Source: an uncultured Thermodesulfovibrio sp. (GTDB lineage: Bacteria; Nitrospirota; Thermodesulfovibrionia; Thermodesulfovibrionales; JdFR-85). From it: DNA of 58,147 nucleotides. Below the pieces are notes generated by a model. It was not told the DNA's origin and ran no database searches. It saw only the letters and a program-made list of their open reading frames with translations. The position numbers and the translations under genes were made by a program. The DNA is taken from the NCBI GenBank assembly GCA_964542175.1, contig CAZITN010000003.1:4249-62395 (forward strand). Direction: 5' to 3'. Below, in pieces: positions 39,714-57,970 of the stretch. Position 1 is the stretch's first letter. Each line of letters starts with the position of its first letter.

Positions 39714-39897
39714 TTATCCTTTTCTTCCCGGTTGGTTTTCTGCCGCTGAAGCAGGACTTGTCACAGAGACGTTCTTAGTTTATCGTATCATTTCATTTAC
39801 CCTGTGATAAACGGTCCTGCCAAACAATCAGATAAGCAATTTGCATGCCCGAAAACATTGTATGCCTTTACTCCCGTGATCTGCCTGAAGGTGCTAT

Positions 39898-39946
39898 CTG
39901 AACAGAAAAGGACATCTTGCGATCAGGAACTGTTCAGAAATGAACA
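39898..39946. promoter_or_regulatory. candidate enhancer (UAS): TGAACAG palindrome plus a third half-site
   Basis: CTGAACAG (39898-905), 24 nt, CTGTTCAG (39930-37), then TGAACA (39941-46). The same heptamer is clustered at 49723-49761. Confidence 0.4.
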
Positions 39947-39999: not shown

Positions 40000-40015
40000 A
40001 GGCATGAATGTTGCT
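40000..40015 (+). promoter_or_regulatory. sigma54-type -24/-12 element upstream of the sox cluster
   Basis: AGGCATGAATGTTGCT has GG and GC at the consensus spacing of TGGCACG-N4-TTGCW and is nearly identical in form to 49951-49966. Caveat: it lies only about 15 nt before ATG 40030. Confidence 0.4.
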
Positions 40016-40029: not shown

Positions 40030-40443
40030 ATGAAACTATGTTTGATCAGAAACCGGTCCATAGTGGTCATTGTATTACTGTTCGGGATGTTCAGTGCAGC
40101 CCATGCATACGGCAACGATATTAAGATGCTCTTTTTCTACGAGGATGGTTGCAAGTACTGTGAAAAGATGGATAAAGTACTTGAGGATGCATCAATCCAT
40201 AACATTGTTTCCAAAAACACAAGCATGATCAAGATAAAGATCACCGGCAAGAAGCATGTGGATGATGGTAAAACAGAAGAAGAGCTTGCCCGGGAATATA
40301 ACATAAAGGGTGTCCCCACAATCGTTTTTCTCAGTCCTGGTGGAAAGGAGCTTTTCAGGGTTCCAGGGCTTCTCTCAAAGGAAGATTTTAAAGATATATT
40401 ATGTCATTATGTGAAGGGGATAAAAAGGGGTTGTAAGGACTGA
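40030..40443 (+). CDS. periplasmic thioredoxin-fold protein (SoxW/SoxS-like role)
   Basis: Sec signal MKLCLIRNRSIVVIVLLFGMFSAAHA, CKYC redox motif and cis-Pro context GVPTIVF. The longer ORF start at 39940 lies in the regulatory repeats. Confidence 0.78.
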   Translation: MKLCLIRNRSIVVIVLLFGMFSAAHAYGNDIKMLFFYEDGCKYCEKMDKVLEDASIHNIVSKNTSMIKIKITGKKHVDDGKTEEELAREYNIKGVPTIVFLSPGGKELFRVPGLLSKEDFKDILCHYVKGIKRGCKD

Positions 40444-40515
40444 CCGGCAGTTTGCCGGAGATGTCAATCTAATGAGTCATGTCTGCACAAGGCAGATGTG
40501 CAAAGGGAGGTAACG

Positions 40516-41007
40516 ATGGCGCGGAAAACTTTATTGATGGGGGTGGTGCTGCTTGCACTCTCAGGTTTTATCCTTGGCCCGGGATCAGCCAGGGCTGCTG
40601 ATACTGAGAGAAAGGCGGTCTACCATTGTGATTTCGGCAACCCCAAACGAGTTGATGCGATGCTCCGCAATATCTATAACCTGGTAAACTTTTATACTAC
40701 AAATGGTATTTCCTATGATGTCCGGGTTGTTTCCAATTCAGCTTGTGTCCAGTTTCTGCTGACGGATACCAAGGGTACAAAGTTTGCTTCCAAGAAGATT
40801 CCCCCGAAACTTGCCAAATCCATAAATGAGAGAATGCAGAGTCTTGCGGATGGTTACGATGTCAAGTTCGAACAGTGCAGCATCACTCTTAAGAGGACGA
40901 ATACACCCAAATCAAAACTTAAGCCCTTTGTAGCCATTGTTAATTCAGGTCAGGTAAGGGTGGTAGAACTCCAGGATAAAGGTTATGCCTATATCAAGGT
41001 TAAATGA
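40516..41007 (+). CDS. secreted DsrE/DsrF-like fold protein (COG1416-like)
   Basis: Signal peptide ending ARA-AD, then a beta-alpha-beta pattern (AVYHCDF..., VRVVSNSACVQFL). Start at ATG 40516 behind AGGGAGG. Confidence 0.65.
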   Translation: MARKTLLMGVVLLALSGFILGPGSARAADTERKAVYHCDFGNPKRVDAMLRNIYNLVNFYTTNGISYDVRVVSNSACVQFLLTDTKGTKFASKKIPPKLAKSINERMQSLADGYDVKFEQCSITLKRTNTPKSKLKPFVAIVNSGQVRVVELQDKGYAYIKVK

Positions 41008-41091
41008 GGTTGTGTAGCAGATTATGCTCCATCCGGAGGGGATGGAGGCAACGGCAGCATCAAAATATAAATAAAGGAAGGAGGTGCGAGG

Positions 41092-41490
41092 ATGCAGAAG
41101 GAAAGAAGGAGGATCTCTGTCAAAGTGAGGACTCTGGTATTTGCAGGGTTGTTTCTGCTCTCTATGGTGATCTTTGCAGGTATGGTTTTTGCGGGTAGCA
41201 GTGTAGATGAGGGCAGAAAGATATGCACTACGAGGAAGCTTGGCAATTGTGTTTCCTGCCACTATCTGCCTGATGTAGAGTCTCCCGGAAATGTTGGTCC
41301 CAACCTTGTGGAGTCGATGAAAAACTATACCCCTGAAGACCGTGCTACAGTGAGGCAGTGGATCGAGGATGCTCGGAAGTTCAATCCGGAAACCATTATG
41401 CCTCCATTTGGTGCCAACAAGATACTCAATCAGAAGCAGATTGATGCAATTGTCGACTACCTGTATTCCTTGAAGAAGGGCGGGAAATAG
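41092..41490 (+). CDS. soxX: monoheme cytochrome c SoxX
   Basis: Signal/anchor, a single CVSCH heme motif and PPFG..LNQKQIDAIVDYL, typical of SoxX. Confidence 0.87.
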   Translation: MQKERRRISVKVRTLVFAGLFLLSMVIFAGMVFAGSSVDEGRKICTTRKLGNCVSCHYLPDVESPGNVGPNLVESMKNYTPEDRATVRQWIEDARKFNPETIMPPFGANKILNQKQIDAIVDYLYSLKKGGK

Positions 41491-41536
41491 CACCACGTTC
41501 AATCTGGTAAACATAATTATTTAAGGAGGAGCTTTT

Positions 41537-42034
41537 ATGAAGGAAGGTAGCAAGATATCAAGAAGAGAGTTCATGATGATGGCGGGGCTGGCATGCACTG
41601 CTGTACTTTCCGCCTCTTCTCTGGGGTCGGTCCTGAAACCTTCAATAGCCGAGGCTGCAGAAAAGCCTGATGTGGAGCATATCAACGATGTTCTGAAGAA
41701 TATGTTCGGGAGCAGAAAGATCGAGATGGCTCACGTAAAGCTAAAGACACCCATAATAGCAGAGAATGGAGCGGTTGTGCCTGTCACAGTCATATCAGAT
41801 CTGCCGATGGAAAAGGATAACTATGTGAAGAAAATCTATATTTTCGTCGATGAGAATTATCATCCATTTACGGCCAGTGCCGAGCTTTCTCCAGCCAATG
41901 GTAAGGCAACGCTCGCTCTGAGAATCAAAATGAGAAAGACTTCAAATGTGCGGGCGGTTGTTGAGACAAGCACCGGCAAGCTCTACAGTGCAATAAAGGC
42001 CGTAAAGGTTACGATCGGCGGTTGTGGTGGATAA
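41537..42034 (+). CDS. soxY: sulfur carrier protein SoxY
   Basis: Tat signal SRREFMMMAG and the diagnostic C-terminus VTIGGCGG. Confidence 0.95.
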   Translation: MKEGSKISRREFMMMAGLACTAVLSASSLGSVLKPSIAEAAEKPDVEHINDVLKNMFGSRKIEMAHVKLKTPIIAENGAVVPVTVISDLPMEKDNYVKKIYIFVDENYHPFTASAELSPANGKATLALRIKMRKTSNVRAVVETSTGKLYSAIKAVKVTIGGCGG

Positions 42035-42075
42035 CAGGTAGAGAATGACAAATTAACAACTAAGAAGGAGGAAAC

Positions 42076-42411
42076 ATGCCAAAAGGAATAGGCAAGATTA
42101 AAATCAGGGTTCCCAGGAAGATAAAAAAGGGTGCGGTCATACCTGTGAAGGCGCTGATTACTCACCCCATGGAGACGGGATTCAGAAAGGACAAGAAGAC
42201 AAAAAAGAGAATACCTGCATATTACATCAATGATGTGAATGTCTATTACGGAAACGACCTGATTACACATATGGAATGGACAATTGCCGTTAGTGCAAAC
42301 CCGTTTATGACATTTTATCTGAAGGCGGACAAGGCGGCTCCACTTAAAATCGTATGGAAGGATATTAAAGGTGGTGAGTATGAAAAGACAATCCAGATCA
42401 ATCCCCAATAA
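42076..42411 (+). CDS. soxZ: SoxZ
   Basis: 111 aa immediately after soxY. Motifs IKIRVP...ALITHPMETGFRKD, typical of SoxZ. Confidence 0.9.
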   Translation: MPKGIGKIKIRVPRKIKKGAVIPVKALITHPMETGFRKDKKTKKRIPAYYINDVNVYYGNDLITHMEWTIAVSANPFMTFYLKADKAAPLKIVWKDIKGGEYEKTIQINPQ

Positions 42412-42429
42412 CTCAGAGGAGGTAGGCGG

Positions 42430-43263
42430 ATGTATAAGAATCTCTTTAAAATAGCAGTATGTCTTGCAGTTATCCTCTCACCTTTAATGGCCGTCCATGA
42501 TGTATGGGCCGGAGGGGACTCTGCTTCGATCCAGGAATACGAACAAGGCTGTACGTACGAGGAGTATGAAAAAACATACCTTGAGTTTTATGGCAACTCG
42601 ACAAATGAGATGGCCGAGGAAGGGAATCCCGCTGAGCTGATGCTCGATGACGGAAAGGATCTTTACAACACAGTTGACGGCTCTAAGGGGAAGTCATGTG
42701 CAAGCTGTCATGGCGAGAATGGGGAAAAGCTGGTTGGCGTGGCAGTAAAGTATCCGAAGTATGACCCGGCGATAAAGGGTATAAACACAGTGGCACTCCA
42801 GATTAACAGGTGTCGTGAGAACCAGATGGGTGCAAAACCTCTGAAGTACGAGTCCTACGACCAGCTGGCGCTTACACTGTATGTTAAATCCCTCTCGAAT
42901 GGAATGAAGATAAATGTGAGCATAGACGGTCCGGCGAGAGAATTTTATGAAAAGGGCAAGAAATTCTACTATACCCGTATGGGACAGTGGAACTTCAACT
43001 GTGCGGTATGTCATGTCAAGTATTCCTGTAAGAGAGTCAGGACCAACCTCCTCTCACCGAACAGGCACCATGGCGACCACTGGCCGTCCTACAGGCTCAA
43101 GTGGGGCAAGACAGGTTCGATGCAGAGACGGTTCAGGGGATGTATGAAAAATATGCGTGCAAAACCTCTACCGTATCAGAGTGAAGAGTATCGCAACCTG
43201 GAACTGTATCTGACTTACCAGTCGAATGGCCTCCCCTTAGAGGTCCCTGGCATGAGAATGTGA
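42430..43263 (+). CDS. soxA: diheme cytochrome c SoxA
   Basis: Signal peptide, CASCH and CAVCH heme motifs and a conserved RFRGCM Cys-ligand region. Confidence 0.9.
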   Translation: MYKNLFKIAVCLAVILSPLMAVHDVWAGGDSASIQEYEQGCTYEEYEKTYLEFYGNSTNEMAEEGNPAELMLDDGKDLYNTVDGSKGKSCASCHGENGEKLVGVAVKYPKYDPAIKGINTVALQINRCRENQMGAKPLKYESYDQLALTLYVKSLSNGMKINVSIDGPAREFYEKGKKFYYTRMGQWNFNCAVCHVKYSCKRVRTNLLSPNRHHGDHWPSYRLKWGKTGSMQRRFRGCMKNMRAKPLPYQSEEYRNLELYLTYQSNGLPLEVPGMRM

Positions 43264-43450
43264 AGATACCAGTAAGCCTCGAACTGCTTTGAAAGGAAGG
43301 CGGAACAGCGTGGAGCAGTACACATGATCACATGTGAGTGAGATGTTGAATGCTGTGAGTGTGTTTCACATCCATCACGCCTTTCTTTGGTTTGATCAGA
43401 CTGACAGCGACTTTAGAAAATGAATTACAGAAACTTCAAGGAGGCGCTCA

Positions 43451-45115
43451 ATGAGTATCAGCAGGAGAGAGTTTATAAAGGTTCTGTCACTTGCTGCAGG
43501 TGCATCAACCTTCTTGCCTTCCGGTGTGCTTGCCAAGGCATTGACTGAAAAGAACCTTCTTGAATTCAAGGCAAAGGGAAATCTGACAATACTGCACACC
43601 ACAGACAGCCATGCCCAGATTGTGCCCATATACTACAGAGAACCTGACACAAACATCGGCGTTGGGGTAAACAAGGGGAAACCTCCCCATCTTACAGGGA
43701 AGGAGTTTCTGCGCTATTATGGTATCAAGCCTCAAACACTTGAGGCTTATGCATACACTTCCGATGACTATCTCTCCCTGGCAAGGGAATTCGGCAAGAT
43801 GGGGGGATTTGCTTATATTGCGGCATTAATAAAGCAGATTCGCGCAGAAAGAAATGGTAAAACCCTCTACTTTGACACAGGAGACACACTTCAAGGCTCT
43901 GCCACCAGCCTGTGGACAAAAGGCGAGGACATGGTGAAAGTCCTGAATCTGCTTAAATGTGACGCAATGACAGGACACTGGGAATTCACATACGGCGAGG
44001 AGAGAGTTCAGGAGCTGATTGGAATGATGAACTTTCCCTTCGTAGCCCAGAATGTCCACGAAGCTACATGGGGAGATCAGATATTCAAACCCTATGTCAT
44101 AAAAACAGTAAACGGGATTTCCGTCGGGATAATAGGACAGGCCTTCCCCTATACGCCTATTGCGAACCCCAGAAGGCTGATCCCTAACTGGTCCTTTGGT
44201 ATCAAGGAAGAAAATATGCAGGATGTAGTAGATGAGGTGAGGTCTAAAAAGGTCGACCTTGTTGTTGTCATTTCGCATAATGGTTTTGACGTTGACAAGA
44301 AAATGGTCAGTCGTGTCAAAGGGATTGATGTAATTATGGGTGGCCACACCCATGACGGTCTCCCGAAGCCTGTAATGGTGGGAAAGACGCTTGTAATAGG
44401 CTCTGGCTGTTACGGCAAGTATCTCTCAAGGCTTGACCTCGAAGTGAAGGGAAAGACAATAACAGACTACTCATACAGGCTGATACCGGTTATGTCCGAG
44501 ATGATCCAGCCTGACCCGGAAATGGCAAAGCTGATTGATGAGATAAGGGCTCCATACAGGGAAAAACTGGAAGAGGTAATAGGCCATACTGAGGATGTCC
44601 TTTACAGAAGGGGGAATCTCGATGGAACCTTTGATGAGTTGATCTGCGATGCCCTTGTAGATCACTATGGTGTGGACTTTGCTTTCTCTCCTGGATTCAG
44701 GTGGGGAAGGACCGTTCTTCCCGGACCAATCACGGCTGATGATGTCTACTCACAGACAGCCCTTACCTATCCCAATACATACAAGAGCAAGATGAAGGGG
44801 AAAATGTTAAAGGATATACTTGAGGATATAACAGATAATCTCTTTAATCTTGATCCATATAAACAACAGGGTGGAGACATAGTCAGGACAAAAGGGCTGG
44901 ACTTCAAGATAGTCGTAAAGGAGAAGATGGGCAGCAGGGTTCAGAACCTGACGGTGCGGGGCGAACCTGTTGATCCTGACAAGGAGTATACATTTACCGG
45001 ATGGGCATCCATGGCAGAACAGAGCGGTCCACCTGTATATGATATTGTGCTGGATTATATAAGGAAGAAGAAAAAAGTCAAGGTTTCGCTCACAAGACCG
45101 ACGATAGTCTTATAG
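43451..45115 (+). CDS. soxB: thiosulfohydrolase SoxB
   Basis: Tat signal SRREFIKVL, metallophosphoesterase motifs (HTTDSH, GDT, GHWEF, GGHTHD) and a 5'-nucleotidase-like C-terminus. Confidence 0.94.
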   Translation: MSISRREFIKVLSLAAGASTFLPSGVLAKALTEKNLLEFKAKGNLTILHTTDSHAQIVPIYYREPDTNIGVGVNKGKPPHLTGKEFLRYYGIKPQTLEAYAYTSDDYLSLAREFGKMGGFAYIAALIKQIRAERNGKTLYFDTGDTLQGSATSLWTKGEDMVKVLNLLKCDAMTGHWEFTYGEERVQELIGMMNFPFVAQNVHEATWGDQIFKPYVIKTVNGISVGIIGQAFPYTPIANPRRLIPNWSFGIKEENMQDVVDEVRSKKVDLVVVISHNGFDVDKKMVSRVKGIDVIMGGHTHDGLPKPVMVGKTLVIGSGCYGKYLSRLDLEVKGKTITDYSYRLIPVMSEMIQPDPEMAKLIDEIRAPYREKLEEVIGHTEDVLYRRGNLDGTFDELICDALVDHYGVDFAFSPGFRWGRTVLPGPITADDVYSQTALTYPNTYKSKMKGKMLKDILEDITDNLFNLDPYKQQGGDIVRTKGLDFKIVVKEKMGSRVQNLTVRGEPVDPDKEYTFTGWASMAEQSGPPVYDIVLDYIRKKKKVKVSLTRPTIVL

Positions 45116-45135: not shown

Positions 45136-45181
45136 AGGTATCCCTTTGAAGCTCTTCATAGGGATACCTCTTTTTATTTTT
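45136..45181 (+). terminator. intrinsic terminator after soxB
   Basis: AGGTATCCCT (45136-45) pairs with AGGGATACCT (45160-69), followed by CTTTTTATTTTT. Confidence 0.75.
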
Positions 45182-45268: not shown

Positions 45269-46822
45269 ATGCTCCATAAAAAAATTCGAGTCTTGAACGC
45301 CATTGCAACAGTTCTTGTTCTGCTCCTTTTCACTTTCTTCCTGCCAGAGACGTGGGCTGAGGAGGAACCTGCCAGAGAGGTGCTGAGGATGATGCTGATC
45401 CCACTTGAATCCCCTTCTGAGATGTACAGGAAATTCCTGCCTGTTAAGCGTTACCTTCAGGACCGGTTGAATCGCGGTATATCGTTAAAAGTCGCCAGGA
45501 ACAGCTCTGATATATTGACCCTTTTTAAAAAAGACAAGATTGACGTTGCCTTTGTCTGTCCAACGCTCTACTGTGAAATAGCAGCAGAAACGGGTATTGA
45601 ACCTCTCGTGAAGTTGCAGATCAACGGGAGTGATGAGTACAGGAGTGTGCTTGTAGTGAGAGACGATGCAGATATCCGTAAAATTTCCGATCTTTATGAC
45701 ACTACAATGGTTTATGGCAGATACAGATGCCCCGGGTCTGGCCTCCTTCCTGACATAATGCTTGGCAGGATTGGAATGGAAAGGGACGACTTCTTTGATA
45801 TAGTAAGACTTGGATCTGATGAAAGTGCAATGCTGGCTGTAATGGCGAGGATGTTTGATGTAACCGGCGTCCCGGAAATGTCCGTAAGGCAGTATTTGGG
45901 CAGGGGCCTCAGAATTCTGAGATATTCCTATCCGATTCCTCAGTATCTTTTTGTTGCGAGGAAGGGCCTGGGAGACGGGTTGATTGCGGATTTAAGGAAG
46001 GCATTGCTGGATGTTAACGTGCTTCCTGGAAAAGAGGCTGTGTTAGGCAGGATAGAAGAGGGTATCTCCGGGTTCACTGAAGCAAAGGACAGCGATTACG
46101 ATATTGTAAGACTGCTGATGAGGAGCTCTGGTGAGGCAATCAGGTCGAGAAACGGCAGCAACGGAACCATTCTGCTAGTAGAGCCTGTAATATATGCCCC
46201 TGATATGTTCAGGAAAACAAAAAGGCTGAAGAATTGTCTCGAAAAGAGCCTGGAAAGAAAAATAGATATCTTGATTCCTCAAAACAACCAGGCATTCGTT
46301 GCAATGAAGCAGAAGATCAAAAACCTTGTTATCCTTCAGGAAAATTCCCTCTATAGAACAAAGAGGGCTCCGGGAGAGAGATTTGTCTCCAGATACGATT
46401 TGCTGCGTTATGAGAAGGGACTGGTGATTACACTGAAGAGCAGCAAGATTAACAGCCTGACCGACCTGAAGAACAGAAGTGTCGGTGTTATATCATTTGA
46501 TTCGGAAGGAGGGTATCTCTCGCAGGCGAGGCTTCTGGACCGCGAGGGGATACGTTTAAAGAAGGAACAGTTTTCTCTGTTTGGTACATATGAAAATGTC
46601 GTTATGGCGGTCTACAGAAAAGAGGTTGATGCCGGCTTCGTCAGCTCTGCTTCTTTTGAGGAGATTCAAAAGGATATTGATCTTGGAAAGATAAAAATCA
46701 TGGTAAGCACGCCTCCCCTTGAGGATTGGGTGTTCTCTGTAAAGGGGCTTTCCTCAGTGCAGTGGGGGATTATAAAAGACCAGGTGAACAGGTGTCATGA
46801 AGTTACTGGAAAACTTCAATAA
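45269..46822 (+). CDS. secreted protein with two tandem PhnD-like (type-2 periplasmic binding) modules
   Basis: Signal peptide. Module 1 covers about aa 35-290 (LRMMLIPLESP...YRSVLVVRDD...) and module 2 about aa 295-510 (GVISFDSEGGYL...DAGFVSS...). No ABC permease or ATPase nearby. Confidence 0.78.
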   Translation: MLHKKIRVLNAIATVLVLLLFTFFLPETWAEEEPAREVLRMMLIPLESPSEMYRKFLPVKRYLQDRLNRGISLKVARNSSDILTLFKKDKIDVAFVCPTLYCEIAAETGIEPLVKLQINGSDEYRSVLVVRDDADIRKISDLYDTTMVYGRYRCPGSGLLPDIMLGRIGMERDDFFDIVRLGSDESAMLAVMARMFDVTGVPEMSVRQYLGRGLRILRYSYPIPQYLFVARKGLGDGLIADLRKALLDVNVLPGKEAVLGRIEEGISGFTEAKDSDYDIVRLLMRSSGEAIRSRNGSNGTILLVEPVIYAPDMFRKTKRLKNCLEKSLERKIDILIPQNNQAFVAMKQKIKNLVILQENSLYRTKRAPGERFVSRYDLLRYEKGLVITLKSSKINSLTDLKNRSVGVISFDSEGGYLSQARLLDREGIRLKKEQFSLFGTYENVVMAVYRKEVDAGFVSSASFEEIQKDIDLGKIKIMVSTPPLEDWVFSVKGLSSVQWGIIKDQVNRCHEVTGKLQ

Positions 46823-48260
46823 TAAAATCAGTATTAAGACAAAAGGAATAATATATGTAGTAATACTCATAGGATTCATCTACATATCCATAAGCATCAT
46901 AGTCCTCTCTGTTGCCAGAAGAAACATTGTTTCACAGATGAAGAATTTCCATAATTCAATTGCCAGGAAACTCGTTCTCACGGCTGCTGATTCACTGGTA
47001 TCGGAGAATTATTCATATCTCATGCAGCAGGTCAGACAGCTACAGGCGACGGAGCAGGTAAAGGCTGTAAGGGTGATTGACAGCAGGGGGATCATAGTGG
47101 CTTCGGATAAAATACAGGAGATAGGAAGGACAGACAGGCAGCTACAGGACATCATGCTATCCCGCAAGAGCCTGAATGAATCCGGCCTTGATATCATGAT
47201 GCCCGTGACGATTGATGGGGATATCCTGGGTGCGGTCAGGATAGGCTTTGACTGGGATGCAGAGCAGGAGCTGATCAGAGGAGAATTCTATAAAATCAAG
47301 ATGAGGTTGTTCTACCTTGCCTTGGTTATTTTTGTGATCGGTGTGGGTGGGGCTTTTGTAGTATCAAGGAAGCTGACCAGACCCATAATAGAGCTCCTTA
47401 AGGAGATAGAGGAATTTGACAAGGAAATCTATCAGTCAGGCGAGGATCATTCACGATCATCCTATGGTGATGAGACCGTCCAGTTGAGTCATGCCTTTCA
47501 TCAGATGCTCCGGAACCTGAGAAAATATCTTAAGGAGTTCATAAGGATGTCTGAAGAGAAGGAGAAACTCTCCTGCATGGCCACCGTTGGCCAGATGTCA
47601 GCACAGATTGCCCATGAGATAAGAAACAGCCTTTACGCAATCAGTGGTGCAATTTCCGGTCTTGAGGCCGTGGGCAACAGAAATGATATGATAGAATATA
47701 TTGAAATCGTCCGGGATGAGGTAAGGGAGATGACAATGGTGACGGAAAGGTTTCTGAGGTTTGCCAGGATGCCTGAACCATCACCTGTCAAATGCAATAT
47801 TGAAGATATAATAAGGAAGGTGAACGATCTCCTTGAACCAGACCTTGAAGAATCCGGTATAAAAGTTACCGTTGAGGGTGAGAGACCACCGGATACAATA
47901 GCCGATCCCACTCTTCTCAAACAGGCATTCATGAATATCATGATGAACTCCGTGCAGGCGATAGAAAAGGATGGGGAGATTAACATCAGTATGGATACAT
48001 CTTCCGGCTATATAGCTGTTACAATTGAAGACAGCGGCCCCGGGATACCAAGTGAGATTGCAGAAATGATATTCAGACCTTTCTTCACGACAAAACATGA
48101 CGGAACCGGACTCGGGCTGGCTATAGTGTATAAAATAATTCTGTCTCATCATGGAGAGGTTTTTTTTGAAAATACGAAAAATGGAGCGTGTTTTACTGTC
48201 AGAATTCCAGTGCGGCATGCAGGTAACAGCCAGGCAGATATCATGGTAAAGAAATTTTGA
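46797..48260 (+). CDS. sensor histidine kinase (2 TM, periplasmic loop, HAMP, HisKA, HATPase)
   Basis: TM1 IIYVVILIGFIYISISIIVLSV, a roughly 130-aa loop, TM2, HAMP, H-box AHEIRNSL and G-boxes DSGPGIP/GTGLGLA. Overlaps the upstream gene by 26 nt. Confidence 0.9.
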   Translation: MKLLENFNNKISIKTKGIIYVVILIGFIYISISIIVLSVARRNIVSQMKNFHNSIARKLVLTAADSLVSENYSYLMQQVRQLQATEQVKAVRVIDSRGIIVASDKIQEIGRTDRQLQDIMLSRKSLNESGLDIMMPVTIDGDILGAVRIGFDWDAEQELIRGEFYKIKMRLFYLALVIFVIGVGGAFVVSRKLTRPIIELLKEIEEFDKEIYQSGEDHSRSSYGDETVQLSHAFHQMLRNLRKYLKEFIRMSEEKEKLSCMATVGQMSAQIAHEIRNSLYAISGAISGLEAVGNRNDMIEYIEIVRDEVREMTMVTERFLRFARMPEPSPVKCNIEDIIRKVNDLLEPDLEESGIKVTVEGERPPDTIADPTLLKQAFMNIMMNSVQAIEKDGEINISMDTSSGYIAVTIEDSGPGIPSEIAEMIFRPFFTTKHDGTGLGLAIVYKIILSHHGEVFFENTKNGACFTVRIPVRHAGNSQADIMVKKF

Positions 48261-48285
48261 TTTACCAGATTCGAAGGTGATTTCC

Positions 48286-49626
48286 ATGGAGAAGATTCTA
48301 ATAGTAGATGATGAGAAAAACATCAGGAAGGTAATAACGAGATACCTCAGACAGGAAGGCTATTTTGCCGATGCAGTAATGGATTATGAAGATGCCCAGA
48401 CCAGGCTTCTTGATGAGAAATACGATCTAATACTTCTGGACTTGAAACTCCCCGGCAAATCAGGGCTTGAACTGTTGAAATGGGTGAAGAAAACAATACC
48501 CTCCATACCGGTAATCATGATAACTGCTTATGGCAGCATTGAAAACGCTGTCGAAGCCATAAAGATTGGGGCATCCAACTATCTTACGAAACCTGTTGAC
48601 ATGAAGGATATGGTTGCAATTATCAGGCATACGCTGCTCAGGGAACAACACTTCATAGAGGGCGAGGAAGACAGCTCTCATATGAATGATGAACACGGAA
48701 TAATAGGCCGAAGCAAAAAAATCAGGGATGTCCTTTCCACAATAGATGTTGTTGCCTCCAGCAAGGCGAATATCCTGATATGCGGTGAGTCGGGAACCGG
48801 CAAGGAACTGGTTGCCCGAGCCATGCACAAGGCTTCCTCACGAAGGGACGGCCCTTTTATTGCCATTAATTGTGCTGCTGTGCCAGCCGAGCTTATTGAG
48901 AATGAACTGTTCGGGCACGAACAGGGTGCTTATACAGGTGCAACCACCAGGGAGGTTGGAAAGGTGGAACTTGCTGATGGCGGGACACTGTTTCTCGATG
49001 AGATAGGAGACATGTCTCTGAACATGCAGGTCAAACTGTTGAGATTCATTCAGGAGAGGGAGTTCTTCAGGATCGGTGGGACCAGACCTGTAATGTCCGA
49101 TTGCCGGATAATAGCTGCCACCAACAGGGATCTTGAAGAGGATATTGCTTCTGGCAGGTTCCGGGAAGAGTTATACTACAGAATAAACGTCATACAGATT
49201 GATGTTCCTCCCCTGAGGGAGAGACGGGAGGATATTGAACTTCTTGCCGAGCATTTTCTGAGAATATTTGCAGAAGAGAACAAAAAGTATGTAACGCGTA
49301 TCTCACCGCTGGCCTTGGAGGCGCTGAGCAGGTATGACTGGCCGGGAAATGTCAGGGAATTACAGAATATAATCGAGAGGGCCATAGTAATGACAAGGAG
49401 TGATATCATATCTCTCGAGGACCTCCCGCAAAAGATAAGCAAACTTCACAGAATTGAACCGTCTGAGATTGATGAGTTGCCGGATATGTCTCTTTCGGAG
49501 ATTGAAAAACTCGCCGTAATCAAGGCACTCAGGGCGGAGAAATGGAATCAGACAAGAGCCGCTAAACGGCTTGGAATCACAAGAAGACAGCTTCGAACGA
49601 AGATGGAAAAATACGATCTCCTCTGA
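48286..49626 (+). CDS. sigma54-dependent response regulator (NtrC family)
   Basis: Receiver (ILIVDDE, DLILLDLKLPG), AAA+ domain (GESGTGKE, GAYTGA, ELYYRI) and a C-terminal Fis-type HTH. Start at ATG 48286 behind GAAGG. Confidence 0.95.
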   Translation: MEKILIVDDEKNIRKVITRYLRQEGYFADAVMDYEDAQTRLLDEKYDLILLDLKLPGKSGLELLKWVKKTIPSIPVIMITAYGSIENAVEAIKIGASNYLTKPVDMKDMVAIIRHTLLREQHFIEGEEDSSHMNDEHGIIGRSKKIRDVLSTIDVVASSKANILICGESGTGKELVARAMHKASSRRDGPFIAINCAAVPAELIENELFGHEQGAYTGATTREVGKVELADGGTLFLDEIGDMSLNMQVKLLRFIQEREFFRIGGTRPVMSDCRIIAATNRDLEEDIASGRFREELYYRINVIQIDVPPLRERREDIELLAEHFLRIFAEENKKYVTRISPLALEALSRYDWPGNVRELQNIIERAIVMTRSDIISLEDLPQKISKLHRIEPSEIDELPDMSLSEIEKLAVIKALRAEKWNQTRAAKRLGITRRQLRTKMEKYDLL

Positions 49627-49722
49627 CAACTGCCTGGCAGCCTGCCATAAGTTTCATTTCTAATTTGATTGGATGCTCTCTGACCTTGATACCTTCCCCG
49701 CGAGCAGGATTTTGATCGTCTA

Positions 49723-49761
49723 TGAACAGCAGAATCGTCCTGTCTGAACAAAAATGAACAG
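49723..49761 (+). promoter_or_regulatory. candidate enhancer: three direct TGAACA(G) repeats
   Basis: TGAACAG (49723-29), TGAACA (49745-50) and TGAACAG (49755-61), about 190-230 nt upstream of the sigma54 element. The heptamer is shared with 39898-39946. Confidence 0.35.
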
Positions 49762-49816
49762 TTTGGATTTATGGCCTGATGGAATCTCCAGAAGTTAAAA
49801 GAAAAAATTTCTCAAT

Positions 49817-49935
49817 GAAGAACCCTGCGGCAAGCCGCAGGGTATCTACGATATGTAAGGAAAGTTTTTGATTTTATTTCATTCGCTCGCTTACCCCGTG
49901 GAAGACCACGGGGAATGCGCTCGTTGTGCATATTC
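49817..49935 (+). repeat. intergenic repeat family A, copy 2
   Basis: Hairpins CCCTGCGG-CAAG-CCGCAGGG (49823-42) and CCCCGTGG-AAGA-CCACGGGG (49894-913). Aligns with 57971-58103 and the reverse complement of 19290-19408. Confidence 0.88.
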
Positions 49936-49950: not shown

Positions 49951-49966
49951 TGGCATGCTCCTTGCT
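49951..49966 (+). promoter_or_regulatory. sigma54 -24/-12 promoter of the YeeE-DUF302-TusA operon
   Basis: TGGCATGCTCCTTGCT matches TGGCACG-N4-TTGCW in sequence and spacing. It lies about 115 nt upstream of the yeeE-like start and directly downstream of an NtrC-family activator gene. Confidence 0.68.
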
Positions 49967-50079: not shown

Positions 50080-51312
50080 TTGAAACAGAAAATCAGGGAA
50101 GGCATTGTTTTGTTGCTTATTGTTGCAGGATTCATGGCAACTCTGGTTCTGATATTCAAAATAAGGAGATATCTGAGCATAGATCCTGATACACTTTCCG
50201 ATGAGGATCTGGCGGCTATAAAACAATCGATCAAGACAACGGTAATAGTTTCAGGATTCATAATCGGAGGCCTGATGGGCGCGATTGTGCAGAGAAGCAA
50301 GTTCTGTATTGCAGCCGCATGTCACAGTATTGTTACAATACGCGAGTTGACCCAGTCACGGGCGTATGCGATGGCACTTTTTGTTGCAATCCTTGGGACC
50401 CAGGTCCTTTACAGGATGGGTGATGTTGATATCACGAGAAGTATATATGTTTCTTCACCATTCACCTGGTTGAGTTATGTGGTCGGTGGGTTCATATTCG
50501 GTGTCGGTATAGTCTATGCCGGAGGGTGTGCGAGCAGGATCCTCGTGAGGTCCTCAGAGGGCAACCTTGGTGGACTGGTCAGTGTTCTGGCTTTCATCTT
50601 TTCATCAGGTGCAACCTTGTGGGGTATTACTGCCCATCTGAGAGTGGATGTTTTCAACAGTGTGACCGCGGAAATGCAGACCCAGTATATTCCCGACATC
50701 TTAGGTGGTACTGTGCCTTACTATATCGTGATAGCCGTTGTGGAGGTTGTATTGCTTGTGTTCATGCTTACTGCTTCAAGGGATTCTGAATGGTGGAACT
50801 GGCGCTGGCCTGTTGCAGGGATAGGCATAGGACTTACCATAGTTTTTGCCTGGTGGATAAACGGGATAGCTTACAAAGTCCTGCCCTACCTGGATTCTTT
50901 CTCTTATACAGGTCCTGATGACCCGACGTTGCTTCAGTTCTGGCGGCCGAAGAGTCTGACTTTTGCACTTGCCGATGCCCAGACCTTCAGGTACATTATT
51001 CTCTGGACGGGAGAATCGATAAATTTTGCCATAGCATCAGTTCTTGGAGTTATAGCCGGAGCGTTGGTGGCTGCCGTCATAAGCGGGAGTTTCACATGGG
51101 TTGCGCCGCCTCTTCAGCAGTTCAAATATAATCTTGTAGGCGGACTATTGATGGGCTTTGGTGCAGTTCTTGCCCTCGGTTGTAATATTGGACAGGGACT
51201 GAGTGGATTTTCTACACTGTCTATTGGGAGTATTCTGACGATGTCATTCATTTTCCTGGGAGCTATTTCCGGGGCCAAGTACATGAACTGGCGGCTGATG
51301 AGAGAACTGTGA
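50080..51312 (+). CDS. YeeE/YedE-family sulfur-compound (thiosulfate) transporter
   Basis: 410 aa and polytopic. Two halves with conserved Cys contexts (QRSKFCIAA, YAGGCASR, LALGCNIGQG). TTG start behind GGAGGTGAG. Confidence 0.88.
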   Translation: MKQKIREGIVLLLIVAGFMATLVLIFKIRRYLSIDPDTLSDEDLAAIKQSIKTTVIVSGFIIGGLMGAIVQRSKFCIAAACHSIVTIRELTQSRAYAMALFVAILGTQVLYRMGDVDITRSIYVSSPFTWLSYVVGGFIFGVGIVYAGGCASRILVRSSEGNLGGLVSVLAFIFSSGATLWGITAHLRVDVFNSVTAEMQTQYIPDILGGTVPYYIVIAVVEVVLLVFMLTASRDSEWWNWRWPVAGIGIGLTIVFAWWINGIAYKVLPYLDSFSYTGPDDPTLLQFWRPKSLTFALADAQTFRYIILWTGESINFAIASVLGVIAGALVAAVISGSFTWVAPPLQQFKYNLVGGLLMGFGAVLALGCNIGQGLSGFSTLSIGSILTMSFIFLGAISGAKYMNWRLMREL

Positions 51313-51319
51313 AAATATT

Positions 51320-51871
51320 ATGATGAGGCCGGGTATTTATAGGAAAATAACCAGAGGTTTGCCTGCCCTTTTTGTCATGTTAATATTATCAGGCTGTGCG
51401 TTTAACGGAAAGGCAGAGAGGGCTGCGTCTACCCTCTCTTCTGCTTACTGTAGAGATCCTGTTGTTATCAACAAGATCAATGGTGACTATGACGAGGTAT
51501 GGGAAGACTTGAAAATGGCTCTGAATGACAGAGGGCTGGTTATTTCAAGCGTTTCCCATGTTGGTGAAATGCTTGAACGTACAGGCAAGGCACTGGGAAG
51601 GACAAGAAAGATATATGAGAGGGCGAAGGTAATGGAGTTTTGCAGTGCCGTTGTATCAAGGGACATGCTGGAGGTTAACCCCCATTATATCTCATTCTGC
51701 CCTTATCAAATAATGGTTTATTCCCTCCCCGGCAAGCCTGATGAAATTTATATTTCCTACAGGCATCTTATCTGGAAGGATGATGATCGTGACAAGGTTC
51801 TGGATGAGGTGGAAGAGCTTCTGAAGGATATAATAAACGATGTGCGGGAACTGCACAAGGAATATGAGTGA
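51320..51871 (+). CDS. DUF302-domain lipoprotein
   Basis: Lipobox LSGC. DUF302-like core (EFCSAVVSRDMLEVNPHYISFCPYQIMVY). Confidence 0.7.
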   Translation: MMRPGIYRKITRGLPALFVMLILSGCAFNGKAERAASTLSSAYCRDPVVINKINGDYDEVWEDLKMALNDRGLVISSVSHVGEMLERTGKALGRTRKIYERAKVMEFCSAVVSRDMLEVNPHYISFCPYQIMVYSLPGKPDEIYISYRHLIWKDDDRDKVLDEVEELLKDIINDVRELHKEYE

Positions 51872-51900
51872 ACATATCAACAGGAGAAGGAGGAGAAGTC

Positions 51901-52137
51901 ATGTCTGAAACAAGCGTAGCCCAGAGGATTGATTTGAGTGGCCAGAACTGTCCCATGCCGGTTCTTAAGACAAAGAAACATCTGGATGCAATGCAGTCAG
52001 GAGAGGTGCTTGAGGTTATTACAACCGATCCTGGCTCAAAGTCCGACATCCCTGCACTCATCAAGAGACTCGGAAGTGAACTGATAGAGTTGAAGGAAAA
52101 CGGCGGGGAATTTACATTCCTGATCAAAAAGGGCTGA
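51901..52137 (+). CDS. TusA/YeeD-family sulfurtransferase
   Basis: CPMP active-site motif (LSGQNCPMPVLKTKK). About 78 aa from ATG 51901 behind GGAGGAG. Confidence 0.9.
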   Translation: MSETSVAQRIDLSGQNCPMPVLKTKKHLDAMQSGEVLEVITTDPGSKSDIPALIKRLGSELIELKENGGEFTFLIKKG

Positions 52138-53462: not shown

Positions 53463-55049
53463 ATGAAAGATGCAGAAAGATATCCTGGGGGAAAGCTTAC
53501 TGTCACGGCAAAAGTCCTCCGTTCTCTCGGGCATGATATTGGTGAGAGCATTGTGGAAGGCCCTGAGGGATTGCTGAATCTCCTTGCGGGAATATTTGAC
53601 CCGGAGGGAGAATATGGCTACATCCCGGATCTTGCCCTTCTTGAGTTGAAAGTCAGAGAGGTTGAGAAAACAGACTTGCCCGATTTCGATGAGTGTAATG
53701 GATACTGGATAAATCCGTCACTTAACGTAATAAGGACAGGCTGGAGAGGACTTACGGGATTTTTCAGGGAAGGGGAGGATGTCGTGCCTGCTCCTGGAGA
53801 GTGTCTGGTCCTGATGTGGAAGGACCGGAGGGGTGGGATTCACATCGAAGAGCAGAGGAATGACCTGATTCTTGCCCTGAAGATTGCCGCAGAGAACCTT
53901 GATCTGAGGAGACTCTCTGAAGATACGGGCAGGGGTGTTCCGTCTTTAAGGGGACTCCTGTACAGTGCGGAGGAATCAGGAATTCTTAAACGTCCTACAT
54001 CAAGGGTCAGACGCAACTATGACCGTATTGATTCGAATATTTTTCCTGACAACAAGTTCCTCGCAGCCGAGACCTTCACTCTCCAGTGGCATATCACACA
54101 GGCCTGTGACCTTCATTGCAAGCACTGCTACGACAGGTCGAACCGGGAATACCTGACCTTTGAGAAGGCCCTTTACGTGCTTGATCAGTTCTATGAATTC
54201 TGTATAGAAAAAGGAGTTTCCGGCCAGGTCTCCTTCTCCGGCGGGAACCCTTTCCTCCATTCTTCATTCTTCAGGATCTATGAAGAGGCGGTAAAGAGGG
54301 GGTTCGTTGTAGCAGTTCTGGGTAATCCGGTAACTGAAGAGCGGTTAAGGGAACTTCTCTCAATCAGAAAACCCTCCTTTTACCAGGTGAGCCTTGAAGG
54401 GCTGAAGGACCGGAACGACTGGGTGAGAGGCGAGGGACATTTTGAGAGGACTCTCGATTTTCTCTCCCTTCTGGGAAGGTTTGGGATTTACAGGATGGTG
54501 ATGCTAACGCTGACGGAATCAAATTTCAGAGACGTGATTCCCCTAGCGGAACAGCTCAGGAGGCTTGCAGATACCTTTACCTTCAACAGGCTCTCAATGG
54601 TGGGAGAAGGAGAGAACCTGAGATTGCCTCCTCAAGGTGAATTCAGAATCTTTCTGGAAGAATATCTTGCAGCCTGCAATGACAATGTATCCCTCAGTCT
54701 GAAGGATAATTTTTTCAACATCCTGAGAGTCGGAAAAGGTGAGCCCCCTATAGGTGGATGCACCGGATACGGTTGTGGCGCAGCCTTCAACTTTGTCTCC
54801 GTACTTCCCGACGGCGAGGTCCATGCCTGCAGGAAGTTTCCTTCACTGATAGGGAATATTTACGAAGACAGTCTGCTTGAGATTTACGACTCACCCATTG
54901 CAGATAGATACCGGGAGGGGCCGTCGGAATGCAGGGACTGCAGCCTCCGTCTGGTCTGCAGGGGCTGTCTGGCAGTGGCCTACAGTCATAAACTCGATCC
55001 TTTCAAGGATAAAGACCCCTATTGTTTTATCCAGGACCCAGACCGGTAA
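53463..55049 (+). CDS. radical SAM enzyme with C-terminal SPASM-type domain and a roughly 205-aa unknown N-terminal domain
   Basis: CDLHCKHCY (CxxxCxxC) at about aa 215. C-terminal Cys cluster GGCTGYGCGA..HACRKF..CRDCSLRLVCRGC. The N-terminal third has no motif I recognise. Confidence 0.88.
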   Translation: MKDAERYPGGKLTVTAKVLRSLGHDIGESIVEGPEGLLNLLAGIFDPEGEYGYIPDLALLELKVREVEKTDLPDFDECNGYWINPSLNVIRTGWRGLTGFFREGEDVVPAPGECLVLMWKDRRGGIHIEEQRNDLILALKIAAENLDLRRLSEDTGRGVPSLRGLLYSAEESGILKRPTSRVRRNYDRIDSNIFPDNKFLAAETFTLQWHITQACDLHCKHCYDRSNREYLTFEKALYVLDQFYEFCIEKGVSGQVSFSGGNPFLHSSFFRIYEEAVKRGFVVAVLGNPVTEERLRELLSIRKPSFYQVSLEGLKDRNDWVRGEGHFERTLDFLSLLGRFGIYRMVMLTLTESNFRDVIPLAEQLRRLADTFTFNRLSMVGEGENLRLPPQGEFRIFLEEYLAACNDNVSLSLKDNFFNILRVGKGEPPIGGCTGYGCGAAFNFVSVLPDGEVHACRKFPSLIGNIYEDSLLEIYDSPIADRYREGPSECRDCSLRLVCRGCLAVAYSHKLDPFKDKDPYCFIQDPDR

Positions 55050-55459
55050 TGGACAGCACCTTTATGAAAATAGGGAAGCTTGCAGAAGAGGCGGGTGTAA
55101 GCATAGATACCATCAGGTATTACGAGAAAAGGGGAATCCTCCCGCCTCCTGTAAGATCTGCCTCCGGATACAGACTCTATACTGAAGAGACAGTGGATAT
55201 GCTCAGGTTCGTAAGAAAGGCAAAGGGTCTTGGGTTCAGACTGGATGAGATCCGGCAGCTTGCAAGGCTCAGGTACAGCCCCTGCGACGACAGGTGTGTA
55301 AGTGTCAGAAAGATTGCTGAAGAAAAGATGAAAGAGGTTTCCGAAAGGATCAATGATCTCCTTGAGCTCCAGAAGATGCTCGACAGTTTCATTGATTCAT
55401 GCAGGAGAAACAGGACCCTCAGTAAATGTCCCTTCCTTGAAGAACTCGGAAAGGACTAA
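55049..55459 (+). CDS. merR: MerR-family Hg(II)-type transcriptional regulator
   Basis: HTH IGKLAEEAGVSIDTIRYYEKRGIL. Cys pattern SPCDDRC...DSC-x8-CP mirrors MerR Cys82/117/126. The ATG overlaps the rSAM stop (TAATG). An alternative start is at 55064. Confidence 0.85.
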   Translation: MDSTFMKIGKLAEEAGVSIDTIRYYEKRGILPPPVRSASGYRLYTEETVDMLRFVRKAKGLGFRLDEIRQLARLRYSPCDDRCVSVRKIAEEKMKEVSERINDLLELQKMLDSFIDSCRRNRTLSKCPFLEELGKD

Positions 55460-55496
55460 TGGATTAATCATTTTTCACTCCTTGCAGTTTTTTTTC

Positions 55497-55528
55497 TTGA
55501 CTCTTGAGTATACTCCAGGGTTTATAAT
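55497..55528 (+). promoter_or_regulatory. MerR-type promoter/operator (long spacer with dyad)
   Basis: TTGACT (55497-502), a 20-nt spacer containing the dyad CTTGAGTATACTCCAG (55503-18, 14 of 16 positions symmetric), then TATAAT (55523-28). Confidence 0.72.
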
Positions 55529-55547
55529 ATAACAAACGGGAGGTAAT

Positions 55548-56072
55548 GTGAAGAGGTTGTCTGTAATAATAGCTGTATTCTTCTGTTTTGTCTCAAGTTC
55601 GGTTCTCCTTTTCGCCGGAGAGAAGGATATTTTTCTCATCCATCTGAAGACGGCACTGAAAAAGGACGATGCCCAGATATGCGTGGCCTACAACATGATC
55701 TGGGCTGCCCTTGAAGAGGGTTTTCAGGTAAAGGTGCTTGTGGATGCCAGTGCAATTGATACCTTCAAGATCGGGTGGCTGAGCAAGAAGGATGATATTG
55801 AGGACTATAGGATCCCGGACAATCTGAGAGAGGCCCTTTCTGTTCAGTTCAGCAAACCCCTGGAGAAGATCCCTGAGACCTATGGTGATTTGCTGAGGAT
55901 GCTTCACGACCTGGGAGCAGAGTTCTATGTGAACACAGGATATCTCATAGTCTCAAAGTCAGGAACACCGGAGGCCCCCCTTGATAGGATTTCTGTAAAG
56001 TTCTTCAAGCCTGTGAGTCTGAGAGAGATGGTAAGGTTGAGAAAAGAAGCAAAGTACTACATGGCCTATTAG
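55548..56072 (+). CDS. secreted hypothetical protein, possible DsrE/DsrF-like fold
   Basis: GTG start behind GGGAGG and a signal peptide. A beta-alpha-beta pattern (IFLIHLKT..., VKVLVDASAIDTF) resembles the 40516 protein. There is one Cys in the mature part. Confidence 0.6.
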   Translation: MKRLSVIIAVFFCFVSSSVLLFAGEKDIFLIHLKTALKKDDAQICVAYNMIWAALEEGFQVKVLVDASAIDTFKIGWLSKKDDIEDYRIPDNLREALSVQFSKPLEKIPETYGDLLRMLHDLGAEFYVNTGYLIVSKSGTPEAPLDRISVKFFKPVSLREMVRLRKEAKYYMAY

Positions 56073-56084
56073 GGGAGGATTTGT

Positions 56085-56420
56085 ATGTCTAAAACCAAAT
56101 ACACAGGGCTTGGAAGCATAATCGCCTCGTTTCTTGCAGCCTCGTGCTGCGTGGGACCTGCAATCTTTGTGATCTTTGGCACATCGGCAGGTTTTTTCAG
56201 CAAACTCACCTTCCTGGATAAATACCGCCCCTATCTCTTAGGAGCGGCCTTCCTTATGCTTGGCTATTCCTTTGTTAATCTCTACATCAGGAAACCATCC
56301 TGCGACTGTGCTGAAGACATAAGAAACAGAAAGATTGCCAAGGGGATATTCTGGGTGGGCCTTGTGGCGGTTGTCTTTTCGCTCACCTTCAGGAAAATAC
56401 TGCTCTGGCTTTACAGTTAG
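56085..56420 (+). CDS. merT: mercuric ion transporter MerT
   Basis: Three TM helices, CCVGP in TM1, LDKYRPYLLGAA and a second Cys pair (SCDC) in the TM2-TM3 loop. Collinear with Tn501 MerT. Confidence 0.88.
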   Translation: MSKTKYTGLGSIIASFLAASCCVGPAIFVIFGTSAGFFSKLTFLDKYRPYLLGAAFLMLGYSFVNLYIRKPSCDCAEDIRNRKIAKGIFWVGLVAVVFSLTFRKILLWLYS

Positions 56421-56432
56421 GATCCATGAACA

Positions 56433-57839: not shown

Positions 57840-57970
57840 AGACGGGCAATAGGCAAAAGGCGATAGGCTATAGGTTTAGATGGTGAAGCGGAGAAGGGAA
57901 AAGACAGGGAGTAGGGTGTAAAATCCTAAACACGAATATCGAAATCCTAAACAACATTAAGGAATATAAT

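Follow-up and report, generated by a model that had tools for sequence, protein, structure and literature searches.

A candidate binding protein–kinase–regulator system for sulfur perception between the sox and yeeE operons of an uncultured Thermodesulfovibrio

In a 58,147-nucleotide stretch of an uncultured Thermodesulfovibrio sp. genome (assembly GCA_964542175.1, contig CAZITN010000003.1, positions 4,249–62,395; this whole stretch is the window, numbered from its first letter), three co-directional genes lie between soxB and a yeeE–DUF302–tusA operon and encode a secreted tandem PhnD-fold binding protein, a histidine sensor kinase and a sigma-54-dependent response regulator (Table 1). We propose, at a probability of roughly 70%, that this trio forms a three-component signalling system that would switch on the Sox and YeeE/TusA operons from their sigma-54 promoters. 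Its architecture would be that of AioX/AioS/AioR (AioXSR), which joins a periplasmic sensor protein of family PF12974 and a kinase with an sCache-like domain to a sigma-54 regulator of AtoC type that acts at an RpoN promoter (PMC5908839, PMC8050422), and its kinase and regulator would be of the TspS/TspR type. We hold the role of the binding protein as receptor with less confidence than the regulatory wiring.

The trio and its flanking operons

The initial annotation, which drew on the letters of the window alone, had described the first gene of the trio as encoding a secreted protein of 517 residues with two tandem PhnD-like modules, and both gene and architecture were recovered. Pfam family PF12974 (Phosphonate-bd) matched the protein in two stretches (1.1e-70), and an AlphaFold2 model built on 20 homologues (predicted local distance difference test (pLDDT) 88, predicted template-modelling score (pTM) 0.82) comprised an N-terminal helix followed by two alpha/beta binding modules. 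This helix (residues 2–23) resembles a signal peptide (MLHKKIRVLNAIATVLVLLLFTFFLPETWA/EEE, ending TWA/EEE). The N-terminal module matched PF12974 strongly (residues 42–277). Matches of the C-terminal module (around residues 300–495) were weak, comprising NMT1 at 2e-08, TAXI and SsuA, TtrS at 5.8e-4 and, for the module alone, PtxB just at E 0.017. Foldseek matched the model to PtxB (E 4e-22, TM-score 0.78), ArrX (the best target TM-score, 0.85), AioX, PhnD (3p7i) and HtxB, and across both modules (more than 500 columns) to the tandem GlnPQ SBD1–SBD2 and to transferrins. BLASTP detected no similarity between the two modules (E 1.1); if the tandem was born of duplication, that event would be ancient, and otherwise the C-terminal module would have been recruited separately.

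The kinase and the regulator also matched their earlier descriptions. The kinase gene starts within the binding-protein gene, overlapping it by 26 nt, and its product has two transmembrane (TM) helices (placed by eye at about residues 17–38 and 169–190) on either side of a periplasmic loop of about 130 residues. The loop matched sCache_3_2, a domain not named earlier (residues 40–161, 32.8 bits against a Pfam cut-off of 28.4); HisKA and HATPase_c matches were clear, and the HAMP match was weak and below its cut-off (17.6 bits). With the kinase sensor region as query, a word-indexed search returned only 20 proteins, all from the same clade. The third gene had been called an NtrC-type activator with a Fis-type helix–turn–helix, and Pfam domains agreed, with the motifs GESGTGKE and GAYTGA both present. 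The database copy of the protein has 446 residues, which places the true start of this gene probably at ATG 48286.

Upstream of the trio, a seven-gene thioredoxin–soxXYZAB operon begins at ATG 40030 rather than at the open reading frame (ORF) start at 39940, and a terminator-like hairpin follows soxB. This hairpin was read directly, as the terminator consensus scan did not list loops longer than 8 nt and thereby missed it; sigma-70 and terminator consensus scans of the window gave the same counts as shuffled sequence and were not used. The soxCD genes were absent from the window. The second gene of the operon, for a secreted protein of 169 residues, has a counterpart in about one-third of the related sox loci. 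The absence of an ATP-binding cassette (ABC) permease or ATPase from the window, claimed at the outset, was borne out by Pfam scans (ORFs of at least 130 residues not overlapping a longer ORF before 38 kb, and gene-like ORFs beyond 38 kb) and by a Walker-A plus LSGGQ motif scan of ORFs of at least 150 residues across the window. Further downstream, positions 55022–57839 carry a mercury-resistance-like set, with a MerR-family regulator, an ORF of 174 residues, a membrane protein resembling MerT and a pyridine-nucleotide disulfide oxidoreductase resembling MerA.

Table 1 Genes and predicted sites of the trio and its surroundings (window coordinates)
Feature	Position	Strand	Remarks
Tandem PhnD-fold binding protein, 517 residues, secreted	45269-46822	+	N-terminal module about residues 36-290 (C97, C154, D184, Y226); C-terminal module about residues 300-495
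TspS-like sensor histidine kinase, 487 residues	46797-48260	+	TM1, sCache_3_2, TM2, HAMP, HisKA, HATPase_c
TspR-like sigma-54-dependent response regulator	48277-49626	+	REC, Sigma54_activat (AAA+), AAA_lid_14, HTH_8
Target operon 1, thioredoxin-soxXYZAB	40030-45115	+	Seven genes
Thioredoxin-like protein, secreted	40030-40443	+	First gene of the sox operon
Secreted protein, 169 residues	40498-41007	+	No Pfam match; between thioredoxin-like and SoxX-like genes
Cytochrome c, SoxX-like	41092-41490	+	
SoxY	41537-42034	+	
SoxZ	42076-42411	+	
SoxA	42430-43263	+	
SoxB	43451-45115	+	TIGR04486, 817 bits
Terminator-like element after soxB	45137-45181	+	9-bp hairpin GGTATCCCT-N14-AGGGATACC, then T-tract TCTTTTTATTTTT
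Target operon 2, yeeE-DUF302-tusA	50080-52137	+	
YeeE/SoxT-type sulfur transporter	50080-51312	+	
DUF302 protein	51320-51871	+	
TusA-family sulfurtransferase	51868-52137	+	
Predicted sigma-54 (-24/-12) promoter of sox operon	40000-40015	+	AGGCATgaatgTTGCT; 9/11 consensus positions
Predicted distal activator site, sox	39899-39914	.	TGAACAGAAAAGGACA; one mismatch to TGTNC-N6-GNACA
Predicted proximal activator site, sox	39931-39946	.	TGTTCAGAAATGAACA; perfect palindrome, 32 bp from distal
Predicted sigma-54 promoter of yeeE operon	49951-49966	+	TGGCATgctccTTGCT; sole TGGCAY-N5-TTGCW match in window
Predicted distal activator site, yeeE	49713-49728	.	TGATCGTCTATGAACA; one mismatch
Predicted proximal activator site, yeeE	49745-49760	.	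TGAACAAAAATGAACA; one mismatch, 32 bp from distal
Hairpin-bearing repeat, about 119 bp	49807-49925	.	Between yeeE activator sites and promoter; not part of the system
Possible divergent sigma-54 promoter	39835-39850	-	GGGCATgcaaaTTGCT; 9/11; low confidence

Gene order and predicted promoters in relatives

We scanned one genome per species for gene context, which yielded 39 loci from Nitrospirota (Thermodesulfovibrionia and Ca. Sulfobium) and Desulfobacterota (Desulfobulbia), and scored gene order with the window proteins as tblastn probes. Gene order (sox, binding protein, kinase, regulator, yeeE, DUF302, tusA) was conserved across these loci, which sustains the initial view that the trio is a three-component sensor, split over separate genes and associated with sulfur genes. 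The soxB gene lay directly upstream of the binding-protein gene in all 34 loci with upstream sequence (33 by script, which missed L034 solely through its distance cut-off), the kinase and regulator genes followed the binding-protein gene in every locus extending that far, and yeeE lay directly downstream of the regulator gene in 24 of 29 loci as read (23 by script), followed in most by DUF302 and tusA. The gap from binding-protein stop to kinase start was at most 21 nt in 29 of 35 loci, with overlap in nine. A collection of 5.8 billion proteins gave 57 binding-protein relatives, almost all of about 515 residues and 41–49% identical to the window protein; within the loci, identities to the window were 42–49% for most full-length binding proteins, 45–53% for the kinases and 55–64% for the regulators, excepting L001 (94–98% for these proteins), from a Nitrospirae metagenome-assembled genome and 94–100% identical to the window overall. 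In none of the related loci examined did the trio adjoin phn or ptx transport genes rather than sulfur genes, so the original sulfur reading stood on this count too, and the one ABC-type ATPase ORF among 42 related loci, that of L031, stands about 9 kb away. In three Nitrospirota loci (L002, L006 and L009), a gene of about 1 kb unlike the window yeeE sits between the regulator gene and DUF302; it may encode a different or very divergent transporter.

The arrangement seems to be older than the Nitrospirota/Desulfobacterota clade. Among the best 120 of 7995 regulator matches, the next tier (48–51% identity) includes Aquificota, and the same binding protein–kinase–regulator trio was found in Sulfurihydrogenibium (L043) and in L045. 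In Persephonella (L044), an operon encoding two DsrE proteins, a single-module binding protein of 272 residues and the kinase is divergent from the regulator gene; past the regulator gene come TGTCCCAAATGGAACA, TGTCCCTTAAGGGACA 32 bp on, a perfect TGGCAC-N5-TTGCA (TGGCACacctgTTGCA) and then a sox operon. The Persephonella kinase is 30% identical to the window kinase end to end, and the regulators are 48% identical. Single-module binding proteins also occur in an equivalent sox context in Nitrospirota (L034, L037 and L041) as well as in the Aquificota loci, so the C-terminal module appears to be accessory and the tandem architecture dispensable. In two of the three Aquificota loci examined (L044, 7068–8877; L045, 7512–8850), one or two DsrE-family genes lead the binding-protein/kinase operon, a hint that sensor and sulfur-transfer proteins are connected. 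P0057 (L040, 1107–7998; 28% identity), a distantly related tandem protein of the PhnD fold, has a canonical Ser-rich loop and heads a trio with an sCache kinase and a sigma-54 regulator beside a phosphoenolpyruvate synthase/pyruvate phosphate dikinase (PEP-synthase/PPDK)-like gene; the trio layout therefore looks like a general signalling module that is reused for non-sulfur signals.

Sigma-54 promoters had been proposed on both flanks of the trio, and both recur in relatives, each with paired candidate activator sites. In 27 related loci, the first gene of the sox operon is preceded by an equivalent sigma-54 site. With the window included, 21 of the 28 sequences have the sox start codon 11–14 nt past the sigma-54 16-mer, and the transcript is therefore predicted to be leaderless or nearly so, with a 5′ untranslated region of about 0–4 nt. 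The Persephonella sox operon has a 35-nt leader with GGAGG instead. The pattern TGGCAY-N5-TTGCW occurs once in the 58 kb (0.13 expected), at 49951 before yeeE, and a sigma-54 site lies upstream of yeeE in most of 24 related loci, a few of these picks being weak (8/11); sites in relatives match 9–11 of the 11 positions in nearly all cases. No sigma-54 site precedes the binding-protein gene in the window, and among relatives one is present only in L003 and L039. Because of this, and because of the terminator-like hairpin after soxB, transcription of the trio seems to be separate from that of its putative target operons.

Inverted repeats of the form TGTNC-N6-GNACA are the candidate binding sites of the regulator. 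In the related loci they are paired, 32–33 bp apart, and the proximal one usually begins 43–46 nt before the promoter. They reached 7.4 per kb over the 260 bp before these promoters, 26-fold the 0.29 per kb of the other 669 kb of the loci, and their positions were stereotyped. Perfect matches in the window numbered two against 0.39 expected. These pairs predict a regulon of two operons, thioredoxin–soxXYZAB and yeeE–DUF302–tusA. A perfect palindrome, TGTTCGGGCACGAACA, also lies inside the regulator coding region (48908–48923) with no sigma-54 site after it, and may be there by chance. Before yeeE, the spacing in the window is altered by a repeat of about 119 bp with two GC-rich hairpins (CCCTGCGG..CCGCAGGG and CCCCGTGG..CCACGGGG); the repeat is absent from the near-identical locus L001, and the site-to-promoter distance is 206 nt in the window instead of 89 nt. 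Other copies lie at 57968–58067 (89% identical) and, in part, at 19362–19409 on the minus strand, and the repeat looks like a small mobile or repetitive extragenic palindromic (REP)-like element. A possible third target lies opposite the sox operon, where a divergent candidate promoter mirrors the sox promoter across the shared palindrome pair, upstream of a gene (39713–37875) for a 612-residue DUF255/thioredoxin-domain protein; only ten sites of at least 9/11 exist on both strands of the 58-kb window. This gene, which may be a divergent target, is not syntenic in relatives.

The binding-protein pocket and signal perception

We compared the N-terminal module with PtxB and ArrX by sequence alignment at 20–25% identity, anchored by ungapped flanking motifs, and took residue roles from the AioX and PtxB papers. 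On this alignment, C97 falls at AioX Cys106, which bonds arsenite, and at the Cys of the ArrX motif 'FICT', a position held by Gly in PhnD and PtxB ('FGP'). C154-P155-G156 aligns with the Ser-Thr-Ser anion loop (AioX Ser161 to Ser163), D184 with a conserved His (AioX His192, Te_PtxB H160) and the Leu or Met at 46 with the phosphite-specific Asp cap (Te_PtxB D22). Y226, aligned with the Tyr cap (Te_PtxB Y208), is the sole canonical ligand residue kept. For each of C97, C154 and D184, 56 of 57 family members had the residue; the exception in every case was P0057, which was also the only member checked that lies outside a sox context. The cysteine pair and the Asp also occur in all three Aquificota binding proteins. 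Searched exhaustively with HMMER, 1.84 billion representatives gave 2449 relatives at E ≤0.001 and only 16 at ≤1e-30. Among the best 150 representatives plus the three Aquificota proteins, both cysteines occurred in 13 sequences, including that of the window, the first alone in one and the second alone in none, the usual pattern being Gly or Thr with Ser. The more distant representatives with both cysteines (P0200, P0204, P0210 and P0218) lie on contigs shorter than 3 kb, too short to inform on gene context. The Cys-pair proteins thus appear to form a distinct sensor subfamily.

The same residues bear on the public annotation of the protein as a 'phosphonate ABC transporter substrate-binding protein', by which an ordinary phosphonate or phosphite binding protein would stand by chance beside a two-component system. 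The subfamily model TIGR01098 accepts it (156 bits, cut-off 112) and its nearest solved relatives by sequence are PtxB proteins, but the PhnD equivalog model TIGR03431 does not (128 bits, cut-off 261), no phnCE or ptxAC genes were found in the window or in relatives, soxB adjoins the gene in every locus with upstream sequence, and Ser-Thr-Ser, His and the Asp cap have given way to Cys-Pro-Gly, Asp and Leu or Met. As far as sequence allows, we reject this reading, which we regard as scarcely credible, and the present analysis would correct a systematic mis-annotation. Sensing of arsenite or of another thiophilic metalloid or metal, in the manner of AioX, is very improbable. The alignment of C97 with the arsenite-binding Cys106 and the closeness of the model to ArrX would suit it, as would two cysteines and an Asp as ligands for As(III) or a soft metal, yet the targets marked by promoters and activator sites are sox and yeeE–tusA in every genome, and no aio, arx, arr or ars gene is among the annotated neighbours in the window and in relatives.

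In the three-component system that we favour, the orphan secreted PhnD-fold protein would be the primary receptor or a co-receptor, and its N-terminal module would bind a periplasmic reduced-sulfur signal in a pocket containing Cys97, Cys154, Asp184 and Tyr226. The protein, closed and liganded, would then dock on the kinase at its sCache-like periplasmic domain, the kinase would phosphorylate the regulator, and activation of both sigma-54 promoters would induce thiosulfate oxidation on SoxYZ together with sulfur import into the cytoplasm. Confidence in any particular ligand is low. The pocket chemistry does not look like hydrogen-bonded oxyanion capture, and a thiol-reactive ligand or a redox switch seems at least as plausible as thiosulfate. 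Tentatively, and with odds well short of even, we suggest that the protein could receive reduced sulfur through thiols, possibly covalently, with Cys97 and Cys154, on opposite lobes and near Asp184 and Tyr226, capturing sulfane sulfur, sulfide, polysulfide or sulfite. Formation of a Cys-Sn-Cys bridge or opening of a Cys-Cys disulfide would lock the two lobes together or release them, and this would switch the TspS-like kinase.

Paired reactive cysteines are also typical of sulfur carriers, and the binding protein could instead be a periplasmic carrier that delivers sulfur to the Sox enzymes or to YeeE/SoxT and is merely co-transcribed with the regulators. We consider this improbable. The place of its gene after DsrE-family genes in one operon in two of three Aquificota loci would fit a carrier, but the gene is always coupled to that of the kinase, not to yeeE or the sox structural genes, it lies outside both predicted sigma-54 operons, and the distant P0057 trio, of the same layout and beside non-sulfur genes, speaks for a signalling module.

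Several observations weigh against our proposal. The predicted sox promoter matches just 9 of 11 positions, the yeeE activator sites of the window carry one mismatch each and stand 206–238 nt from their promoter through the inserted repeat, and rpoN was not seen in the window. The pocket is without the canonical oxyanion-binding Ser-Thr-Ser loop and His of PhnD, PtxB and AioX, and because these are replaced, binding of thiosulfate in the PhnD/AioX manner is doubtful. Finally, TspS and the Sulfurimonas kinase SulS are described as sensing thiosulfate themselves, without a binding protein, so the sCache domain of the window kinase could itself be the receptor. The binding protein would then be a mere modulator, for example one that holds the kinase off in the manner of TorT or tunes its sensitivity or specificity. 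This alternative gains from the description of TspS/TspR as a two-component system with an sCache_3_2 sensor and from the sCache_3_2 match of the window kinase, which passes the Pfam cut-off. We nevertheless think it unlikely, as three phyla retain the binding-protein gene directly before that of the kinase, the near-invariant pocket residues of the protein argue for a ligand-binding role, and all three AioXSR genes are essential.

Comparison with known regulators

How regulators sense external sulfur is poorly understood (PMC11582611), and the trio offers a concrete, widely conserved candidate for extracytoplasmic sulfur perception that comprises a Cys-pair periplasmic protein, a kinase, a regulator, two predicted sigma-54 promoters and a putative DNA site. 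It predicts that the Sox enzymes and the YeeE/SoxT–TusA import route are co-induced in Thermodesulfovibrionia and Desulfobulbia, whose Sox clusters have been recognised only recently (PMC13500833). Two features look new: a Sox regulator with a binding-protein partner, found next to sox in Persephonella (Aquificota) as well, and the apparent remodelling of the pocket, with a near-invariant cysteine pair and Asp in place of the Gly, Ser and His found in transport-type relatives. Should the thiol receptor prove true, PhnD-fold sensors beside sox in Nitrospirota, Desulfobacterota and one or more genomes of Aquificota would make up a 'Cys-Cys-Asp' subfamily, a periplasmic protein would for the first time be seen to receive reduced sulfur species on behalf of a two-component system, and TspS/TspR-type Sox regulation would be generally three-component.

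The binding protein shares the type-2 PhnD fold with the transport proteins PhnD, PtxB and HtxB and differs from them in its missing permease and ATPase partners, in the aligned replacements at C97, C154 and D184 and in its score below the PhnD equivalog cut-off. Like TtrS/TtrR and ThsS/ThsR, the trio would pass recognition of a sulfur compound from a PhnD-like periplasmic domain to a histidine kinase, the sensed compound in those systems being a sulfur oxyanion. TtrS and ThsS unite binding domain and kinase in one polypeptide, and their regulators are not known to be sigma-54 dependent, whereas binding protein and kinase are encoded by separate genes here. The analogy rests on a single match of the C-terminal module to the TtrS model NF040750 (18.5 bits; the kinase core scored 80.8 bits, and the cut-off is 750). 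The proposed docking of a free periplasmic binding protein on a kinase sensor domain recalls TorT/TorS, LuxP/LuxQ, HptA/HptS and ChvE/VirA, of which LuxQ and HptS have Cache-like domains (PMC8050422). These systems differ from the trio in binding-protein family, ligand, regulator and target.

Other regulators of Sox include SoxR (ArsR type), SulRS (OmpR type), the CsoR-like TTHA1953 and Alvin_2165/2166 (PMC12936845). They too control sox in response to sulfur compounds, but belong to unrelated families with unrelated mechanisms, and none has a periplasmic binding protein (PMC12936845). No Sox regulator that uses a binding protein appeared in the literature searched, in which the known ones are SoxR, Alvin_2165/6, TspSR, the CsoR-like repressor and SulRS.

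AioXSR is the closest parallel in architecture, and the initial statement that no regulator of this architecture had been characterised was overstated, as AioX/AioS/AioR has exactly this layout (PMC5908839, PMC8050422). Both it (and ArxXSR) and the trio have an orphan periplasmic PF12974 protein with an adjacent, co-directional two-helix sCache-like kinase and sigma-54 regulator, and both have an RpoN promoter, here predicted, with an upstream regulator site before a periplasmic oxidation system. By alignment, they also share a pocket Cys, C97 here and Cys106 in AioX; this residue, at the position of PhnD Gly65 and conserved in ArrX, marks the AioX/ArrX sensor subfamily. The differences are as clear. 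In all loci examined, the putative targets are sox and yeeE–tusA, not aioBA or other aio, arx or arr genes; sequence identity is only about 20% and the DNA motif differs; C154 stands at AioX Ser161 and Asp at His192; and the window binding protein is a tandem double module.

TspS/TspR is the parallel for the kinase and regulator. The initial annotation knew of no characterised regulator of this architecture for a truncated Sox system; TspS/TspR is a characterised sigma-54 system of a truncated Sox cluster (PMC6335251, PMC12194929): TspR and TspS control the soxCD-less sox-II cluster of Acidithiobacillus caldus, with a TspR site of TGTCCCAAATGGGACA (PMC6335251), and TspS is reported to carry an sCache_3_2 domain (PMC12194929). 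The kinase and regulator of the window are TspS/TspR-like in their domain set (sCache_3_2, HAMP, HisKA and HATPase_c; REC, sigma-54 and HTH_8) and in the activator palindrome of TGTCC-N6-GGACA type upstream of a sigma-54 promoter (TGTTCAGAAATGAACA in the window, TGTCCCAAATGGAACA in Persephonella), and both systems adjoin soxXYZAB without soxCD, which in our case is absent from the window. No Acidithiobacillus protein was among the best 120 of 7995 regulator matches, and two reviews of Acidithiobacillus mention no binding protein. Published accounts give TspS/TspR two components and propose that thiosulfate acts directly on TspS, whereas the window, the related loci and Persephonella couple a PhnD-fold protein gene to the kinase gene, and the predicted regulon here also takes in yeeE–DUF302–tusA. 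This suggests that regulation of the TspSR type may generally involve a third component, and joins two hitherto separate literatures, those of arsenic sensing by AioXSR and of Sox regulation by TspSR.

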